In this document: positions 777-7,304 of the stretch, in pieces
How the letters are laid out: every line of letters starts with the position of its first letter
Position numbering within the stretch: the first letter of the stretch is position 1
Virus record (IMG/VR): IMGVR_UViG_2778261512_000016
Origin: a virus
Taxonomy: Duplodnaviria; Heunggongvirae; Uroviricota; Caudoviricetes
Length of the DNA stretch: 8,183 nucleotides
Reading direction: 5' to 3' (one strand)
Notes under the pieces: generated by a model
Database searches by the model: none
Told to the model about the DNA's origin: nothing
Seen by the model: the letters and a program-made list of their open reading frames with translations, nothing else
Program-made: the position numbers and the translations under genes

Positions 777-932
777 TTACTCCTCAGATTCGTAAGCTGT
801 GAAGACAGCGACCTCCGTCTGGCCGGTTCGGATTCGTACCTCGCAGAGGTCTTTCCTCGTTACCAGTGCCGTCACTATGACGGTTAAACAGATGACGATC
901 AGGGCGATTAACATCGCCTTTTGCTGCTTCAT
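777..932 (-). CDS. hokD: Hok/Gef-family small membrane toxin (type I toxin), 51 aa, closest from memory to HokD/RelF
   Basis: Translation MKQQKAMLIALIVICLTVIVTALVTRKDLCEVRIRTGQTEVAVFTAYESEE has the Hok hallmark (single TM helix, then RKxLCE ... EVAAF/VF ... YE). GGAG lies 9 nt upstream of the ATG at 932. The product is internal to the 70-aa ORF listed at 777..989. Confidence 0.85.
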   Translation of the reverse strand: MKQQKAMLIALIVICLTVIVTALVTRKDLCEVRIRTGQTEVAVFTAYESEE

Positions 933-989
933 AGCCTGCTTCTCCTTGCCTTTCGGCACGTAAGAGGCTAACCTACGTGTGTAGAGCAT
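777..989 (-). CDS. mok: mok-like reading frame (in-frame upstream extension of hok, as in mokC/hokC)
   Basis: ATG at 989 opens a 70-aa frame whose first 19 aa (MLYTRRLASYVPKGKEKQA) precede the hok Met. This resembles the in-frame mokC extension of hokC as I recall it. The function is regulatory coupling, not a distinct protein. Confidence 0.5.
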   Translation of the reverse strand: MLYTRRLASYVPKGKEKQAMKQQKAMLIALIVICLTVIVTALVTRKDLCEVRIRTGQTEVAVFTAYESEE

Positions 990-1045
990 AGATATGGCCT
1001 CAGATTAATGTTAAGCGTCTTGCCGGACGCGTAATGTTAACTGGG
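981..1045 (+). ncRNA. sok: Candidate Sok-type antisense RNA covering the mok start and SD region (boundaries approximate)
   Basis: Plus-strand promoter-like elements inside mok: -35 TTGCCT (946..951), 17-bp spacer, -10 TAACCT (969..974). The predicted start near 981 is antisense to the mok initiation region. A small hairpin GCGTC-ttgccg-GACGC lies at 1014..1029, flanked by TAATGTTAA direct repeats, and is followed by a U-rich stretch. Placement is by analogy to sokC/mokC geometry; the 3' end is uncertain. Confidence 0.35.
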
Positions 1046-1107
1046 GCTTTTCTCTATCTGCCTTTGGTGTTGATGCCCGAGGCAGATAGCCTCAAGCACC
1101 CGCAGCA

Positions 1108-1640: not shown

Positions 1641-1674
1641 AGATTAGCTTTTTTTTGAGTGTTTGGAGAGTAAA

Positions 1675-2370
1675 ATGTTAGAACCACCAAAGAGTTATAA
1701 TGAAATGTTGCCTATGCTCCATAAGGCGACTTTTATTACTACATTTATATTTTACCTATCATTAGTCATTTATGGCTACATGCCATTGGTTGGCATTAAT
1801 GCCAAGTATATCCCCCCCGTTAAAGACTACGAGGAATTTATTAAATGGATATTAACCTTTGGCATATTACCAATTGCATCTTCAGTTTTTTGGTCAGTAA
1901 TTAGTGGAGCTTTAGATCTACATAATAATGTAGCAAAAATTATTGGAATAAGGAAGATGTGGGATAGTCATTTAATTATTAAACCATTAGCAAAAATTGC
2001 AGGCGTTACGAGAAAATTAACTACTGATGAATCTCACAAGGTAATGAGTAAACTGTATTACCCAGAAGTTAAAGAGTTAAAAGACAAACATTACGTTGAA
2101 CTTTTCTGGAACAAAGTTTATTACTTTTGGGTTTTCTTTGAACATACAGTAATCGCATTTGTTACTATTTTAATAATAAGTATCGCCAAATTAACAAATA
2201 TATTCTCTGTTACTGGCTCTTTAATTAATCTTTGGTTGTGGATTATTTCTCTTGTCGCATTTGACTTCCTTATTTTCATAGCATCAGTTAAACCAAGAAC
2301 AGAAAGCCAAGTAAGACAAATACCTGATAGCAAAATAAAAGAATTCTTTAACAATAACAATATTTTTTAA
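1675..2370 (+). CDS. Hypothetical integral membrane protein, 231 aa, four predicted TM helices (two N-terminal, two C-terminal, separated by a charged soluble region of about 65 aa)
   Basis: ATG at 1675 with GGAG at 1665..1668 (the listed ORF starts at an upstream TTG at 1663). Hydrophobic segments: ATFITTFIFYLSLVIYGYMPLVGI, FIKWILTFGILPIASSVFWSVISGAL, FWVFFEHTVIAFVTILIISIAKL, VTGSLINLWLWIISLVAFDFLIFIASV. Low-GC codon usage. No family recognised by eye. Confidence 0.65.
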   Translation: MLEPPKSYNEMLPMLHKATFITTFIFYLSLVIYGYMPLVGINAKYIPPVKDYEEFIKWILTFGILPIASSVFWSVISGALDLHNNVAKIIGIRKMWDSHLIIKPLAKIAGVTRKLTTDESHKVMSKLYYPEVKELKDKHYVELFWNKVYYFWVFFEHTVIAFVTILIISIAKLTNIFSVTGSLINLWLWIISLVAFDFLIFIASVKPRTESQVRQIPDSKIKEFFNNNNIF

Positions 2371-2382
2371 ACGAGGTTGATT

Positions 2383-3036
2383 TTGAATTACAAAATAAAT
2401 GGAATAAACATACGTTCAGAAAATGCAGCGAAACCGCACACTATGCCATCTAACTATCTCTGTAAACAGATTGAAAGCACTAATAAAAATGGCAATGCCC
2501 TTGATTTTGGATGTGGAAAACTTAGATATTCAGAACAATTAGTAAATAAATTTGAAACTGTGACATTTTTAGATTCCAGAAGACAACTAGAAAGAGTGCA
2601 AATTATCAGAGGTGTACAAACCACGATTCCAGATTACGTGATAAATAACTATAAGAATGCTAATATTGTTTCTTATGAAAATATAGATAAAATAACAAAT
2701 CATTATGATTTCATACTTTGCGCAAACGTGCTTTCCGCAATTCCATGTGAATCCACAATTCACAAAGTCCTCAGTGCGATTAGAGAATTATTAAAGAGTG
2801 ATGGTGAAGCACTGATTGTCAATCAATACAAAAGTTCTTATTTCAAGAGGTACGAGAGCGGTATTAAACATTTGCATGGGTATATATACCAAAACTCTCG
2901 CAATGCTTTCTACTATGGTTTATTAGATGTGGATACTGTAAGTAAAATATGCTCAGATAATAATTTAGAAATAATAAAATCATGGAGCAAAGCAGGTAGT
3001 TCATATGTGGTTGTTGGTAAACATATACATATTTAG
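2383..3036 (+). CDS. Class I (Rossmann-fold) SAM-dependent methyltransferase-like protein, about 217 aa; not a DNA methyltransferase by motif content
   Basis: Motif I LDFGCGKL, acidic post-I residue in TVTFLD, motif II HYDFILCANVLSAIP, motif III LLKSDGEALIV. No DPPY/NPPY-type catalytic motif or target-recognition domain. Start is uncertain: TTG at 2383 sits 6 nt after GAGG (2373..2376); alternatives are TTG 2377 and ATG 2443. It begins 13 nt after the upstream stop, so it is probably co-transcribed or translationally coupled. Confidence 0.65.
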   Translation: MNYKINGINIRSENAAKPHTMPSNYLCKQIESTNKNGNALDFGCGKLRYSEQLVNKFETVTFLDSRRQLERVQIIRGVQTTIPDYVINNYKNANIVSYENIDKITNHYDFILCANVLSAIPCESTIHKVLSAIRELLKSDGEALIVNQYKSSYFKRYESGIKHLHGYIYQNSRNAFYYGLLDVDTVSKICSDNNLEIIKSWSKAGSSYVVVGKHIHI

Positions 3037-3350
3037 TTTATTTCAACAAATTATTAGAAAGAGTGATTTGCTTGTTAATTATTAGCTCGGCAGTGCCGGA
3101 TCAACATGACCCTGCCACTTAGGCCATTGCCGGTTTACCTACTTTTGTAAGGTTCAGCATGAAGTTTTTATATACTCTTCCTAATATCAATAGTGATGCT
3201 CGCTTATGTTAGCTGCTTCTTGTACATAGTAGCCTTCTCCGACAGTACTGCAATGAGCGGAGAGTAAAAGTCGATAAACAATAAGGAGGTTCACAATAAA
3301 TATTTCTCGGTGAAACTTTCAAAGCATTCTCTGTTTTGCTAAATCGACAA

Positions 3351-4250
3351 TTATAAATCAACAACATTTAGTGTTATATCAATATTATTTAGCCTTGCAA
3401 TCTCTGATGAATCACTTGCTATTTTAGCTTTTAATTTATCAATATTAATCATATCTTCATGGCTTATATAAACCATATCACCTTGGTTAACTTTAGATTT
3501 GTTCACTATGGCTTGAATAACAGACAAATCATCCATTACACCTCTCATAAATTTCACCATGCTTTGATCTTTGAAGTCAGATATCGATTTTGAACGTTGC
3601 TTACGTTGAATTGTTCCTTTTGTAATTACTTCATTAATTTCTTTTAAACCAGTGAGCATATCAGACAGACTGCCTTCGCAACTCATCCGATGTTTTATTG
3701 CATTGCGATTAATAATATTGAGTATAATTTCGAGTGAATCTTTATCACTCCATGGATGTAATGATGTATAATCATGATGGCGTCGAATGGCGTCAATCAT
3801 ATCCTGGACCATATCTTCATCTGCTTTATCGCAAAGTTCATTCACGAAATAGCTGGGGTCGATTATTTTACAATAACTTGGAGTTAGGTATCTTGAGGCT
3901 TTACAAAAACCAAAAATATATAAAGTAGAGTATTTATCTTTCAGACTCTCTCCTATTTCATTTATTTTCTCAAAAGATTCGATAGTTTTTTTAATTTTTG
4001 CTGGACTTGCATTCGTAGTAACTTGAACTGCTATCATGTTTTTATTATCAGCTAAATCAATGGCGGGAAAATTAACTTTAATCTGATTCATGTTTACCAG
4101 TTCACTCATTTTCAGCGCGCGAAACATAAAGATGGTCAATGACTCAATTATTCTTTCCATGTCATGAAAGCCTGCCTGTTTGCGTTGCGCGATATAAAGC
4201 TGGAGTAGTGCAATATCACTCTGTAAGTTTCTAATAAGTGGATCAATCAT
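3351..4250 (-). CDS. Hypothetical 299-aa protein; the N-terminal region resembles what I recall as the SMEK-type domain (NFPAIDLADNKNMIAVQVTT ... KIKKTIESF) and the C-terminal alpha-helical region contains an R-x4-H motif (RNAIKH) compatible with a HEPN-like RNase
   Basis: Long minus-strand ORF with ATG at 4250 and AAGGA 9 nt upstream; AT-rich codon usage matching the neighbouring cargo genes. Domain assignments are from memory and motif inspection only. Confidence 0.6.
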   Translation of the reverse strand: MIDPLIRNLQSDIALLQLYIAQRKQAGFHDMERIIESLTIFMFRALKMSELVNMNQIKVNFPAIDLADNKNMIAVQVTTNASPAKIKKTIESFEKINEIGESLKDKYSTLYIFGFCKASRYLTPSYCKIIDPSYFVNELCDKADEDMVQDMIDAIRRHHDYTSLHPWSDKDSLEIILNIINRNAIKHRMSCEGSLSDMLTGLKEINEVITKGTIQRKQRSKSISDFKDQSMVKFMRGVMDDLSVIQAIVNKSKVNQGDMVYISHEDMINIDKLKAKIASDSSEIARLNNIDITLNVVDL

Positions 4251-4303: not shown

Positions 4304-4502
4304 TTCTATTTTTATAGAAACAAGCTTTACAACTTCATCAAAGTTTCTCAAATCCTAATCCACTTTGCAAATCCACTAACCATGCTGAATGCTTTCTGTT
4401 GTTAAACATATCCGCTGCTGGCACCAAGCAGACAAACACACTAACTCTACCCTACTCCACAAAAGAGCCAATCAATATCTGAACTAATAAACTTTAATCT
4501 CA

Positions 4503-4925
4503 TCACTTCAATAAATATCGAGCATTTCCCTGATAGAATGCTAGTATGCGCTGCATAACTTCACTCTTCCGGCACTCGCGACAGATTATGTTCTGACGCC
4601 TGTCGTAGCGACGTATTTCTCCGTCAGGTAATGACCAGATAAGGTCCGGATCAACCGCAGATGGTTCCTTCAGCTTTGCCCTTGAGAGCTTTTTACGGGC
4701 ATTTTGCCAGTCCTTACGCGCCTGTTCAGACGGGAATAACCCGTAACCAGAGTTGTATACATCGCCGCTGGCAACCAGCTCTCTTGCGAGAACGCTCATC
4801 AGATATCTTGTCGCACCTGTCTTGACTTCCAGTTGCCGTAACGTCTCACGCCCACTCCGGCGTACGAGTTCAACAACCTGCCCTTTAATTTTTTCCCGCT
4901 CTTCTTGTGTAAAAACTTTTGCCAC
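4503..4925 (-). CDS. Hypothetical prophage protein, 140 aa, basic; function unknown
   Basis: GTG start at 4925 with AGGAGG 4 nt upstream; host-like GC content; it follows the replication initiator gene on the same strand. No family recognised. Confidence 0.55.
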   Translation of the reverse strand: MAKVFTQEEREKIKGQVVELVRRSGRETLRQLEVKTGATRYLMSVLARELVASGDVYNSGYGLFPSEQARKDWQNARKKLSRAKLKEPSAVDPDLIWSLPDGEIRRYDRRQNIICRECRKSEVMQRILAFYQGNARYLLK

Positions 4926-4965
4926 AAGCCCTCCTGAAAATTACCTCATGACCAGAAATTAACAC

Positions 4966-5931
4966 TTACCCCCTGAAGCCCGGCGGAATTTCGGTATCCG
5001 GCTCAGAAATATGATTCACACAACGCTGTACAGACGAACGCCCCAGGCGGATAACCAGTTCATCCCATTTTTCGCGAAGCTTTGACGGACTCATGATATT
5101 TTTTACCCAGAATGGATCCCGCTGCACCCGACCAAACATTTCACAAATTTGTCTGTGAGTTCTGCCATCCAGCATCCGCATTGTGCGCACGTCGTTGGCC
5201 CATGCGGTCCAGTTGGGTTCTTTCGGTCGCGAAATCTCGCCATCATCGCTGGCGGCCTGCTCGTAAAGACTCACGATTCGCCCCCAGATCCACTGCGCAC
5301 ACGCCAAATCTTCCTGGCTGCCCCACTGGCGTTTTTTCGCACTGAACACAACCGCGTCAGGGTGTCGGGTTAAAAAATCCTGTTCAACCGTCTGCGGGTC
5401 CGGTTGCGAAGCTTCCGGACGAGAAGTCTTTTTATTCTCTGTAGTAATCTCTGTTGTATTCTCTGTAAGATCATCAGGCCATTTTGACCCGATGACATTG
5501 AGTCGTTTTGAACCAATGGAGCGTTTCATTTTGACCTCTTCCATCGTGTCATTTTGACCTGATGGAGCGGCGCATTTTAAACCGATGGATTCGCTCAATT
5601 TGCCACCATCTAAAAGCTCGCTCCCGTAGTTGATCGTGTAGAAATTGGTCATATCGCGCTTTGATTTATTGAGCTTTTCACAACGCAAAAGCCCCAGCGT
5701 TTTCAGACTTGCAAACGCGCGCTTTAACGTTGACTCTGACCAGAATGGGAACTGTTCCAGCCATTGTTCCGTTGTGTTATAAATCCAGCGAACACCATCA
5801 CATTCCATGCCGGAGTTGGTATCTCTCAACCAGTAGTGCAGTTGTTGCAAAACAATGGCTTCGTTTAAGCCAATTTTCATTGCCAGCTGCGTGTTTATAA
5901 CCAGTGGGCGTTCAGCAAAAAGAAGACTCAT
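4966..5931 (-). CDS. Lambdoid replication initiation protein (lambda O-like / replisome organiser) with the origin embedded in its coding sequence
   Basis: N-terminal winged-helix-like region (WIYNTTEQWLEQFPFWSESTLKRAFASLKTLGLL); the central region is encoded by the iterons (repeated SIG.K peptides); C-terminal domain ends ... SKLREKWDELVIRL. Preferred start is ATG at 5931 (GGATGG upstream); the listed ORF extends to a TTG at 5985. It overlaps the upstream gene by 20 nt. Confidence 0.7.
   Translation of the reverse strand: MSLLFAERPLVINTQLAMKIGLNEAIVLQQLHYWLRDTNSGMECDGVRWIYNTTEQWLEQFPFWSESTLKRAFASLKTLGLLRCEKLNKSKRDMTNFYTINYGSELLDGGKLSESIGLKCAAPSGQNDTMEEVKMKRSIGSKRLNVIGSKWPDDLTENTTEITTENKKTSRPEASQPDPQTVEQDFLTRHPDAVVFSAKKRQWGSQEDLACAQWIWGRIVSLYEQAASDDGEISRPKEPNWTAWANDVRTMRMLDGRTHRQICEMFGRVQRDPFWVKNIMSPSKLREKWDELVIRLGRSSVQRCVNHISEPDTEIPPGFRG
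5425..5592. repeat. Putative phage origin of replication: five direct iterons of about 18 bp at roughly 23-bp spacing (5480..5590) followed, in the gene sense, by an AT-rich tract (5425..5478)
   Basis: Plus-strand units CATTTTGACCCGATGACA, TCGTTTTGAACCAATGGA, CATTTTGACCTCTTCCAT, CATTTTGACCTGATGGAG, CATTTTAAACCGATGGAT starting at 5480, 5503, 5527, 5550, 5573. The layout mirrors lambda ori inside gene O. Confidence 0.6.
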
Positions 5932-6433
5932 AATTCCATCCAGCTTTTTGTTGGTATTGCTGTCGATACGCAAGCTTGAAAGCAATTGCTTTTTCTATAA
6001 GTTCGTCAGTTTCACGATCTACAACGGCAGGATCTGCAAAAAGCAGTCCGGATTCCACCACATCGCCATATTCTTTATTTAACCCGGCGATCATGTACGT
6101 AATACTTTTTCCATCACTGATCTCACGATACAACCTGAAATCACTAATCCGGATAGCCTCCATAATCGCAGGCACTAGCGCCGTGAACTTTTCACGCTTA
6201 TCCCTGGTGTCGATAGCCTTCCAGCGTTCGAATATCTTCACTCGATTAACGCCAAGCGCTCGCTGATCAACCGCGCCACCTTCATCTGTGACACGCTGAA
6301 CATCGATGTTCGGGCGCTCTTTCAAAGCCCAGAATGCTTCAGTGATTAATATCGTCGCCTGCTCCTGTGTCATTCCTGGTCGACATATCCAGGCATCCAG
6401 AGCCTCACGAGCCTGTTCAGGAGTGATTTTCAT
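5912..6433 (-). CDS. Prophage protein, 173 aa, in the position of the CII/YdaT-type gene downstream of cro; possibly YdaT-family
   Basis: ATG at 6433, overlapping the dicC stop by 17 nt (translational coupling). Synteny cI-like / cro-like / this gene / replication initiator matches Rac-type racR-ydaS-ydaT-ydaU. Family assignment is by position, not by a recognised motif. Confidence 0.6.
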   Translation of the reverse strand: MKITPEQAREALDAWICRPGMTQEQATILITEAFWALKERPNIDVQRVTDEGGAVDQRALGVNRVKIFERWKAIDTRDKREKFTALVPAIMEAIRISDFRLYREISDGKSITYMIAGLNKEYGDVVESGLLFADPAVVDRETDELIEKAIAFKLAYRQQYQQKAGWNYESSFC

Positions 6434-6647
6434 TGTTCAACCGCCCCGCCCGCTTCGTCTTACGATATTCATCATAAACTTTGGGATCATACTGAAGCTC
6501 CCCGCCAGATGCCTCCTGTAGACGCATCGCGCGACCTTCGGGAACTAAATCCCCTTTCCAGCTATAAAGCGAAGCCAAACGAATACCTGCTGCTTGTGCA
6601 AGTTTTGTTTTTGAACCGAAATACAAAAGAGCGTCAGTTTTAAGCAT
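6417..6647 (-). CDS. dicC: Cro-like HTH regulator DicC (76 aa)
   Basis: Translation MLKTDALLYFGSKTKLAQAAGIRLASLYSWKG ... matches my memory of DicC/YdaS-type Cro-like proteins. AAGGTG lies 6 nt upstream of the ATG at 6647. Divergent from dicA. Confidence 0.85.
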   Translation of the reverse strand: MLKTDALLYFGSKTKLAQAAGIRLASLYSWKGDLVPEGRAMRLQEASGGELQYDPKVYDEYRKTKRAGRLNNENHS

Positions 6648-6661
6648 TTAAAACACCTTTA

Positions 6662-6709
6662 TTGTTAGTCATGACTAACAAAATAGATGTTAACAAAAAC
6701 ATAGTCAAT
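6662..6709 (-). promoter_or_regulatory. dicC promoter with overlapping operator: perfect 20-bp palindrome TTGTTAGTCATGACTAACAA (6662..6681)
   Basis: Minus strand: -35 TTGACT (plus coords 6704..6709), 17-bp spacer, -10 TATTTT (6681..6686). The palindrome lies immediately downstream, over the predicted start. The dicA promoter in the same intergenic region could not be placed confidently. Confidence 0.55.
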
Positions 6710-6730
6710 ACGATTTAGCATTAGCTAACT

Positions 6731-7138
6731 ATGGAAACAAAAAATTTAACTATCGGCGAACGCATTAGGTATCGTCGGAAAAACCTCAAACACACCCAAA
6801 GGTCTCTTGCTAAAGCCCTGAAAATCTCCCATGTGTCTGTATCACAATGGGAACGGGATGATAGTGAACCTACAGGGAAGAACCTTTTTGCCCTCAGCAA
6901 AGTATTGCAATGCTCACCAACATGGATTCTATTTGGCGATGAAGACAAGCAACCAACACCACCTGTTGAGAAGCCAGTTGCCTTATCCCCCAAAGAACTA
7001 GAGCTCCTTGAGCTGTTTAATGCACTGCCAGAATCAGAACAGGATACCCAGCTCGCCGAAATGCGAGCTCGAGTAAAAAACTTCAATAAACTCTTTGAAG
7101 AATTACTAAAAGCCCGTCAGCGGACAAATAAAAGATAA
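6731..7138 (+). CDS. dicA: CI-like HTH (XRE-family) repressor DicA, 135 aa
   Basis: Translation METKNLTIGERIRYRRKNLKHTQRSLAKALKISHVSVSQWER ... matches my recollection of E. coli DicA (135 aa). HTH in the N-terminus; divergent from the cro-like gene. Confidence 0.9.
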   Translation: METKNLTIGERIRYRRKNLKHTQRSLAKALKISHVSVSQWERDDSEPTGKNLFALSKVLQCSPTWILFGDEDKQPTPPVEKPVALSPKELELLELFNALPESEQDTQLAEMRARVKNFNKLFEELLKARQRTNKR

Positions 7139-7160
7139 CATCATCAATGAGTTATCTTTT
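7133..7160 (+). terminator. Weak hairpin overlapping the dicA stop (AGATAAC - 11 nt loop - GTTATCT, then TTT); possible attenuating terminator
   Basis: 7-bp AT-rich stem with a short U-run; weak. K-12 dicA is thought to read through into the ydfABC-dicB operon, so this may be only a partial terminator or nothing. Confidence 0.2.
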
Positions 7161-7171
7161 ACCACATCAAT

Positions 7172-7227
7172 CATGTTAGCCATAACATACAAAATTACTT
7201 GACCTATATGTTAGCCATGGCTAATCT
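7172..7227 (+). promoter_or_regulatory. Promoter of the ydfA-ydfB-ydfC operon with DicA-operator-like sites
   Basis: -35 TTGACC (7199..7204), 17-bp spacer, -10 TAATCT (7222..7227). The spacer contains the perfect 14-bp palindrome TTAGCCATGGCTAA (7211..7224), and a further copy of ATGTTAGCCAT lies at 7172..7183. The half-site TGTTAG(C/T)CA matches the dicA/dicC operator palindrome. Confidence 0.45.
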
Positions 7228-7304
7228 TATTTGCATCAACACACCGCACGGTGTTCTCAGCAAACAGTTCCGCTACCCCGGCGTTAAGGGGAAATGAGGT
7301 CAAC

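Follow-up and report, generated by a model that had tools for sequence, protein, structure and literature searches.

The replication origin of phage lambda lies within the gene of the protein that recognizes it, with four 18-bp dyad iterons at nt 349-433 of gene O (PMC7466680). In plasmid pSK41, the winged-helix N-terminal domain (N-domain) of the initiator likewise binds four 22-bp Rep boxes in the middle of the gene that encodes it; the stretch of protein specified by these boxes is a linker that can be dispensed with, and the C-terminal domain (C-domain) is host-specific (PMC5703833). The 8,183-nt stretch of DNA analyzed here (virus record IMGVR_UViG_2778261512_000016, Caudoviricetes; hereafter the window) carries an O-like replication initiator gene on its minus strand, and in the middle of that gene lies an array of iterons followed by an AT-rich tract. 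Judged from the sequence and its relatives, positions 5432-5612 very probably constitute the vegetative replication origin of a lambdoid prophage, located inside the gene of the initiator that is predicted to bind it. An iteron origin inside an initiator gene is a well-known layout; the version found in the window is very common and was previously unannotated.

Five 17-mer iterons with the consensus TCCATCNGGTCAAAATG were found on the minus strand, i.e., in the sense orientation of the gene. They span positions 5472-5589, with start-to-start spacings of 23, 23, 23 and 24 bp (Table 1), and occupy nt 343-452 of the gene, close to the location of the lambda iterons in gene O. The array was detected by a repeat search and a mismatch scan; Tandem Repeats Finder, the kind of check that had been proposed for it, reported a 12-bp repeat and not the 23-bp array. 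The original prediction had placed five direct repeats with a periodicity of about 23 bp here, and its coordinates, periodicity and plus-strand consensus (CATTTTGACCNGATGGA) were correct, but the array proved to consist of four good iterons, one half-degenerate copy and a vestigial sixth. In the half-degenerate copy (iteron 3) the core GGTCAAAATG is kept and the outer arm is lost. The position of the sixth iteron is better preserved in relatives, where it reads TAGAAGAGGTCAAAGTG or TAGATGAGGTCAAAGTG, and six copies were detected in one of them (L094). Each iteron is a 23-bp dyad-symmetric unit, e.g., CATCAGGT-CAAAATG-ACACGATG. When the consensus was sought in the 8.2-kb window with at most three mismatches, four matches were obtained, all within the array, against a chance expectation of 0.10, and none of 200 shuffled windows reached four matches.

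The iterons are adjoined on their downstream side in the direction of the gene, as in lambda, by an AT-rich tract (5425-5470; 70% A+T, and 65% purine on the sense strand) in which the least stable 40-mer of the gene is located (start at 5429, z = 1.4). An AT-rich tract following the repeats had been predicted. It is indeed present beside them, but it precedes them on the plus strand and follows them in the direction of the gene, and besides its base composition it is marked by three 12-bp-spaced ACAGAGAnTAC units (hereafter 12-mers). The three 12-mers are a candidate DNA-unwinding or single-strand capture element.

The level at which the repeats are conserved was assessed by codon-position entropy, calculated as the mean column entropy in an alignment of 41 unique orthologues, which came from phages, viral contigs and the genomes of Enterobacterales. 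The part of the gene encoding the N-domain (nt 1-318) gave values of 0.32, 0.17 and 0.81 for codon positions 1, 2 and 3, which is the ordinary pattern of coding sequence. This three-base periodicity of variation was gone in the iterons (nt 319-456; 0.36, 0.35 and 0.39) and in the 12-mer tract (nt 457-510; 0.14, 0.36 and 0.16), in both of which third-position variability was below that of the N-domain (p = 1.9e-8 each); the next stretch of the linker (nt 511-620) gave 0.52, 0.58 and 0.62. The 12-mers hardly varied among the orthologues, and their third codon positions varied less than their second. Within the array, conservation tracked the register of the iterons over the codon phase (core entropy 0.21 vs spacer 0.57, p = 1.4e-6), and column entropy was lowest in iteron 2. 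The iteron period of 23 bp is not a multiple of three, and the frames of the successive copies are 0, 2, 1, 0 and 0. Taken together with the predicted disorder of the encoded segment (below), the frames and entropies indicate that the conserved feature is the DNA and that the encoded peptide is a linker. The iterons and the 12-mers are therefore under selection at the level of DNA, independent of reading frame.

When genomes were scanned at the species level with the N-domain, 80 loci were obtained, ranging from Escherichia, Citrobacter, Pantoea, Pseudomonas and Acinetobacter to Staphylococcus, Bacillus, Lactobacillus and Clostridia. A detector that required at least three copies with a spacing of 21-25 bp (or doubled) at gene nt 280-520 was applied to 75 species-level loci, and 12-mers were counted in 70 non-redundant loci. 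An iteron-like array was flagged in 47 of the 75 loci and in none of 300 codon-shuffled controls. When registered on the core CAAWWTG, the units of the family are palindromes whose flanks differ by lineage, with both arms changing together: ggT-CAAAATG-Acc in Escherichia and Staphylococcus, ggA-CAATTTG-Tcc in Pantoea, ggG-CAATTTG-Ccc/Cac in Pseudomonas and Acinetobacter, and gaT-CAAAATG-Atc in Limosilactobacillus. Flank identity averaged 0.65 within arrays vs 0.51 between arrays. Symmetric changes of this kind are the pattern that would be expected of a dimeric reader co-evolving with its sites.

The N-domain was also found in 155 phage records, with lambda, P22, 434, 21 and phi80 not among the matches listed. 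Matches in plasmid records were mostly to phage-sized (~40-kb) ‘plasmids’ or to prophage-like regions in larger records, and not to classic RepA_N plasmids. In one Klebsiella phage (L006 2124-3038), this N-domain and its iterons are joined to a C-domain that is unrelated, so the N-domain and iterons move as one cassette. The initiator genes are mosaic, with joints in or near the iteron/linker region (P0014, P0024 and L006 2124-3038); in P0014, a Klebsiella/Citrobacter-type N-domain is joined to a C-domain of the type found in the window. Mosaic joints at origins are expected in lambdoid phages from modular exchange, and those seen here suggest that such exchange is concentrated at the origin or has a boundary there.

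Unlike the iterons, which diverge, the 12-mers are kept as DNA in this family of initiators, whether in Enterobacterales or in Staphylococcus, Lactobacillus, Bacillus and Clostridia. The motif (A/C)CAGAGAnTAC was present in two to five copies just past the iterons (about nt 400-560 of the gene in loci L091-L166) in 46 of the 70 non-redundant loci, across phyla, with a density of 9.1 per kb in the zone past the iterons vs 0.5 per kb elsewhere in the same genes. Copy number varies, with one extra unit in L089 and five units in L098. Successive units were spaced by 12 bp (77 cases) or, less often, by 11 bp (six cases), and the 11-bp spacing puts the motif in other frames, where it encodes other peptides (L109, L133, L135-137, L146 and L161). 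When units were located by an anchor that did not constrain the wobble base of their Glu codon, this codon proved to be GAG in 105 of 107; in the remainder of these genes, GAA accounts for 54% of Glu codons. The triplet before this codon is ACA, CCA, TCA or GCA in 105 of 109 cases and CAA in the other four: a synonymous Thr codon is never used, and it is the first base of NCA, and hence the amino acid, that varies. These patterns reflect selection on the DNA, and in conservation the 12-mers exceed the iterons by far. By analogy with known origins, the 12-mers may be a sequence-specific site for single-strand capture and unwinding, with the most strongly conserved portion of the N-domain as its reader; they would then be comparable to the 13-mers of oriC, the DnaA-trios and the 13-mers of plasmid DNA-unwinding elements. 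A search with the 12-mer sequences of the literature available found no description of the motif. One weak match in the E. coli genomes covers the 12-mer block alone, and the block is therefore common to other initiator types in E. coli.

The gene had been predicted to encode an O-like initiator, and the protein, which has thousands of database members, was matched by PHROG 391 (‘replication initiation O-like’) over residues 17-321 (profile positions 11-298 of 298; E-value 4.5e-95). BLASTP to lambda O gave 35% identity over residues 147-294 alone (E-value 4e-28). Pfam and NCBIfam contained no family for the initiator, save the NCBIfam DnaT model, which matched the tail through its positions 158-179 only. 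A Pfam scan of 31 N-domains of the family produced only sub-threshold winged-helix hints and no RepA_N (PF06970), and a profile search of PDB sequences with the N-domain produced only insignificant PadR-like matches. The N-domain is ~50% identical across phyla (46-76% in the aligned PHROG 391-related set), and its AlphaFold2 (AF2) model has a topology of H-H-b-b-H-H-b-b with a predicted local distance difference test score (pLDDT) of 60-80. The repeats had been placed in the linker between the two domains of the protein; consistent with this, the stretch of low pLDDT between the folded domains coincides exactly with what the iterons and 12-mers encode. E. coli DnaT ends in VNTVSEPDSQIPPGFRG, PDB sequence matches to the tail of the initiator were 2ru8, 6aep and 9zbt, and the DnaT-like tail recurs in relatives that have a different C-domain.

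The original prediction had likened the locus to lambda ori, a comparison that holds for position and for the downstream AT- and purine-rich tract, but not for the type of N-domain or for the P gene, which the window lacks. The origins of lambda and of Stx phage (six iterons) and that of the window each have four to six dyad iterons at a spacing of ~20-24 bp in the middle of the initiator gene. In both lambda and the window, an AT-rich tract that is purine-rich on the sense strand lies immediately downstream of the iterons, the origin DNA encodes the interdomain linker, and the operon is read from a pR-type promoter. The C-domain is homologous to that of lambda O, and the iteron centers are similar (TCAAAACGA in lambda, TCAAAATGA in the window). 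The N-domain, however, is unrelated to that of lambda O at the sequence level, a DnaT-like tail takes the place of the lambda ...DWIYGVDL, and the conserved 12-bp repeat in the AT-rich tract is without a counterpart in lambda.

The locus resembles pSK41 in having origin repeats that are central in the initiator gene and encode a linker, in the core of the repeats (Rep box core TGTCAAAAGGACA in pSK41, GGTCAAAATGACC in the window) and in the short AT-rich repeats that follow, although these are 15 bp long in pSK41 (GATACTGATTTTATT) and 12 bp long (ACAGAGAnTAC) in the window. RepA_N N-domains were also the best structural matches of the N-domain model, weakly and from a low-confidence model. Unlike pSK41, the window derives from a phage and not a plasmid, its initiator has no sequence similarity to the pSK41 protein and no Pfam RepA_N match, and its C-domain is lambda-O-like with a DnaT-like tail, whereas that of pSK41 binds DnaG primase. 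The iteron centers are alike in three families that are unrelated in sequence: TGTCAAAAGGACA in pSK41 (L168 13617-13760), CCCTCAAAACGAGGG in lambda (L004 535-619) and GGTCAAAATGACC in the window. The reason for this likeness may be that all three require an A-tract bend, or that they descend from a very remote common ancestor.

The true sequence family of the N-domain is that of the PHROG 391 / ‘O-like / DnaD-like helicase loader’ proteins, related members of which occur in Staphylococcus phages 96 and phiIPLA88 and in Bacillus, Listeria, Vibrio, Klebsiella and Pseudomonas phages. These relatives share with the window the intragenic order of iterons and then 12-mers, and vary in the C-domain and in the helper gene, which is of the P, DnaC/IstB-like or DnaB-like type, or is missing. 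A further O-like protein is the domesticated DopC, in which the C-terminal motif of DnaT has been noted (Brezellec et al. 2017, PMC5509034). DopC lies beside a P-like gene, DopE, and its authors found it to lack iterons (PMC5509034), whereas the window has iterons and no P-like gene. The element in the window resembles lambda and pSK41 in its working, but by sequence its initiator falls outside the protein families of both and within a third, which is widespread in phages and is found joined to C-terminal modules of various kinds.

No gene of the P, DnaC or DnaB type follows the initiator in the module of the window or in the same module of three isolated phages (PhiR42_1, mEp460_ev081 and HannyBb). 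Among the 70 loci, such a helper gene was found within about 2 kb downstream in none of the 18 with a DnaT-like tail vs 26 of the 52 with other tails (Fisher p = 4.9e-5). Relatives with the tail ...HWNSPEAWENTL, which is comparable to the end of lambda O, are followed by a lambda P homologue (PF06992, E-value 1e-56), and P homologues occur only beside relatives with such a lambda-like tail; behind tails of other types, the next gene is DnaC/IstB-like or DnaB-like. Removal of DnaT residues 154-179 weakens cooperative binding to single-stranded DNA (PMC4132743), and the C-terminal domain of DnaT docks on PriA and assembles into a filament on single-stranded DNA (PMC13377028). Literature on a link between DnaT and phage O proteins yielded nothing specific except DopC. 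The helper-less initiator may load the host helicase via its tail, which would have been copied from the restart protein DnaT or be held in common with it. In that case the initiator would imitate the PriA-PriB-DnaT restart pathway specifically at the origin, and a phage P or DnaC-type loader would be unnecessary.

Two further candidates were considered in this connection. In the Rac prophage of E. coli K-12 (L167 3120-4730) the gene order is racR, ydaS, ydaT and initiator, as in the window; the Rac initiator is YdaU (DUF1376), and it is followed by the DnaC-like YdaV and then by the DUF977 protein YdaW. DUF977 is present there beside a DnaC-like protein and is therefore no substitute for a loader, and PHROGs files it as Ren-like; the DUF977/LygF gene downstream of the initiator was accordingly rejected as the missing helicase loader. 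Rac oriJ was rejected as a known counterpart of the origin, as YdaU/DUF1376 with the DnaC-like YdaV represents a different family.

The mechanism proposed from these observations would begin with dimers of the predicted winged-helix N-domain (residues 1-108) binding the four or five iterons and wrapping or bending the DNA into an O-some-like complex. This complex, together with transcription from the pR-like promoter, would stress and melt the adjacent tract, and the initiator would hold the three ACAGAGAnTAC units as single strands. The lambda-O-like C-domain and DnaT-like tail would then bring in host DnaB-DnaC, possibly via PriA or the primosome, and this recruitment of host machinery would replace the phage P protein, which is missing from the module; the peptide specified by the origin DNA would serve as a flexible linker only. 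The combined proposal, that the 12-mers are a previously undescribed origin element read as a single-strand capture or unwinding site and that the DnaT-like tail loads the host helicase in the helper-less subfamily, is offered tentatively and is somewhat less likely to be right than wrong.

Three other explanations of the repeats were weighed. The repeats could stem from duplication within the gene or from a peptide that recurs, and have no role as DNA, as three of the five iterons share a frame and encode SIGLK, SIGSK and VIGSK, the 12-mers lie mostly in one frame and encode TENTTEITTEN, and PHROG profiles run across the segment. The original prediction had itself raised this possibility, together with that of repeats not being conserved in homologous initiators. 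The occurrence of arrays in 47 of 75 loci disposes of the latter, and a tandem peptide repeat was rejected because the 23-bp period places the iterons in three frames, third codon positions are conserved as much as, or more than, second positions, and synonymous codons in the 12-mers are fixed while amino acids vary: the Glu wobble base remains G, the preceding codon keeps its CA, and arrays with an 11-bp spacing carry the same DNA motif into other frames. As the encoded segment is also predicted to be disordered, a purely peptide-level explanation is highly improbable. The array could alternatively serve some other DNA transaction, such as pac/cos packaging, partition or site-specific recombination, and the recombination joints found here in mosaic O genes, e.g., P0014, speak in favor of this. 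Such joints are expected at origins in any case, and the array is tied to the initiator N-domain across phyla, whatever the C-domain or genome. In the flanks examined it was always in an initiator gene, followed by helicase, loader or other early genes and not by packaging or partition genes, and this explanation too has very little probability.

It is less improbable, but still unlikely, that the repeats are initiator sites used mainly for control (autoregulation, copy-number handcuffing or exclusion of related phages), with replication starting elsewhere, or that they are an inactive relic. Plasmid iterons also have control functions (PMC5703833), a cloned lambda replication region is reported to exclude related phages (PMC3349717), and the E. 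coli C7 prophage that carries an identical 2.3-kb module has a frameshifted integrase gene and other pseudogenes. However, the array is always coupled, in fixed position and orientation, to the conserved and meltable 12-mer tract, which a pure operator would not need; the sites lie ~0.8 kb downstream of the pR-like promoter, within the coding region; and this is the layout of a proven origin in lambda and pSK41 (PMC7466680, PMC5703833). With regard to a relic, the initiator gene and origin are intact, and the 2.3-kb module is 93-95% identical in the three isolated phages. Continued replication competence of the prophage module, which had been suggested originally, is therefore plausible.

Several observations nevertheless weigh against identification of the segment as an origin, or against parts of the proposed mechanism. 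The instability of the AT-rich tract is no more than moderate (z = 1.4; 91st percentile within the window), and 28 of the 75 family loci were unflagged by the simple detector, so that the array there may be missing or different. Iterons and N-domain would co-diverge by physical linkage alone, and their co-variation is therefore weaker evidence than the frame and entropy tests. The N-domain has no sequence similarity to the N-domains of lambda O or pSK41 RepA that is detectable by BLASTP or hhalign (a profile of 31 N-domains aligned to lambda O residues 1-130 gave a probability of 0.1%). The best Foldseek matches of its model, to the RepA_N N-domains 4pql, 4pt7 and 5kbj (the last a Rep-DNA complex), are weak (E-value 0.01-0.06, TM 0.52-0.57 (target), probability 1.0), and the mean pLDDT of the model is 54. 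The association of tail and helper ignores shared ancestry, the DnaT literature examined does not define contacts or a function for the last 17 residues of DnaT, and a literature search found no paper on the origin of any member of the family.

Table 1. Positions of the predicted origin, the initiator gene and neighboring genes in the window
Feature	Position	Strand	Remarks
Iteron 1	5565..5589 (17-mer 5573-5589)	-	TCCATCGGTTTAAAATG
Iteron 2	5542..5566 (17-mer 5550-5566)	-	TCCATCAGGTCAAAATG, exact consensus; dyad unit CATCAGGTCAAAATGACACGATG at 5542-5564
Iteron 3	5519..5543 (17-mer 5527-5543)	-	TGGAAGAGGTCAAAATG; left half degenerate
Iteron 4	5496..5520 (17-mer 5504-5520)	-	TCCATTGGTTCAAAACG
Iteron 5	5472..5496 (17-mer 5480-5496)	-	GTCATCGGGTCAAAATG; 23-bp dyad unit 5472-5494
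Vestigial sixth iteron	5596..5612	-	TAGATGGTGGCAAATTG; 6 mismatches to consensus; exactly 23 bp upstream of iteron 1
Three 12-bp-spaced ACAGAGAnTAC units	5432-5466	-	Within AT-rich tract; Tandem Repeats Finder period 12
12-mer unit	5456-5466	-	ACAGAGAATAC
12-mer unit	5444-5454	-	ACAGAGATTAC
12-mer unit	5432-5442	-	ACAGAGAATAA
O-like replication initiator gene	4966..5931	-	321 amino acids; ATG at 5931; stop 4966-4968; PHROG 391
N-terminal domain	5608..5931	-	Residues 1-108; predicted winged-helix, iteron-binding
Predicted disordered linker segment carrying origin DNA	5407..5607	-	Residues 109-175; AF2 pLDDT ~24
Lambda-O-like C-terminal domain	5047..5385	-	Residues about 183-295; helical in AF2 model
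C-terminal tail	4969..5019	-	VNHISEPDTEIPPGFRG; last 17 residues, near-identical to E. coli DnaT end
dicA-like repressor gene	6731-7138	+	Gene order
pR-like promoter	6680..6708	-	5' of cro-like dicC; sole sigma-70-like match in 4400-7300
cro-like dicC	6417-6647	-	
cII/YdaT-like gene	5912-6433	-	
DUF977/LygF Ren-like gene	4503-4925	-	Next gene after initiator
SMEK-domain gene	3351-4250	-	

The window belongs to a lambdoid prophage of E. coli: many complete chromosomes of this species match positions 4400-6700 with 100% identity, and the initiator is annotated with identical 321-residue boundaries in PhiR42_1, mEp460_ev081 and E. coli C7. The pR-like promoter, predicted from sequence, would drive transcription across the origin. 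The origin segment (5425-5612) was found in 1869 of 5426 complete E. coli genomes, in at most four places per genome; among the matches listed, it lay throughout under a gene annotated ‘hypothetical protein’, and the RefSeq label is the same. No RNA family was found by Rfam within the origin region. The cII/YdaT-like and initiator genes overlap by 20 nt (5912-5931), and some database entries (P0002-P0004) are 448-residue proteins with a YdaT Pfam domain that cover 99% of the initiator; these are probably frameshifts or annotation artefacts.

Elsewhere in the window, positions 927-1101 (minus strand) gave a full-length Rfam match to the sok antitoxin RNA (114 bits), and the gene beside this match in the identical host region is annotated hokD. 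The prophage therefore has a hok/sok-type toxin-antitoxin locus, between the replication and Q regions. An accessory block (1663-4250) separates the replication module from the hok/sok and Q region. It contains a 235-residue open reading frame of unknown function, a class I S-adenosylmethionine (SAM) methyltransferase (a weak match to PADLOC mad2) and, on the other strand, the SMEK-domain protein, which matches the PADLOC candidate model Aga_REase-PNTD1-PNTD2 (E-value 8.6e-21). The block may be a defence or moron island.

These results provide a function, and an origin, for a gene annotated ‘hypothetical protein’, in a segment carried by about a third of complete E. coli genomes. The N-domain, dyad iterons and 12-mers, in that order, form a compact and easily recognized signature that could be used to annotate phage and prophage origins in many phyla, and fragments bearing such origins are candidates for phage-exclusion tools and mini-replicon vectors. 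The 12-mer, conserved from Enterobacterales to Firmicutes whatever its frame, is the most novel element; follow-up is merited by this motif and by the combination of a DnaT-like tail with the absence of a helper gene. The natural exchange of C-domains, tails and helpers behind a constant cassette of N-domain and origin offers a system for studying how initiators choose a route of helicase loading, one of which may borrow the tail of the host DnaT.

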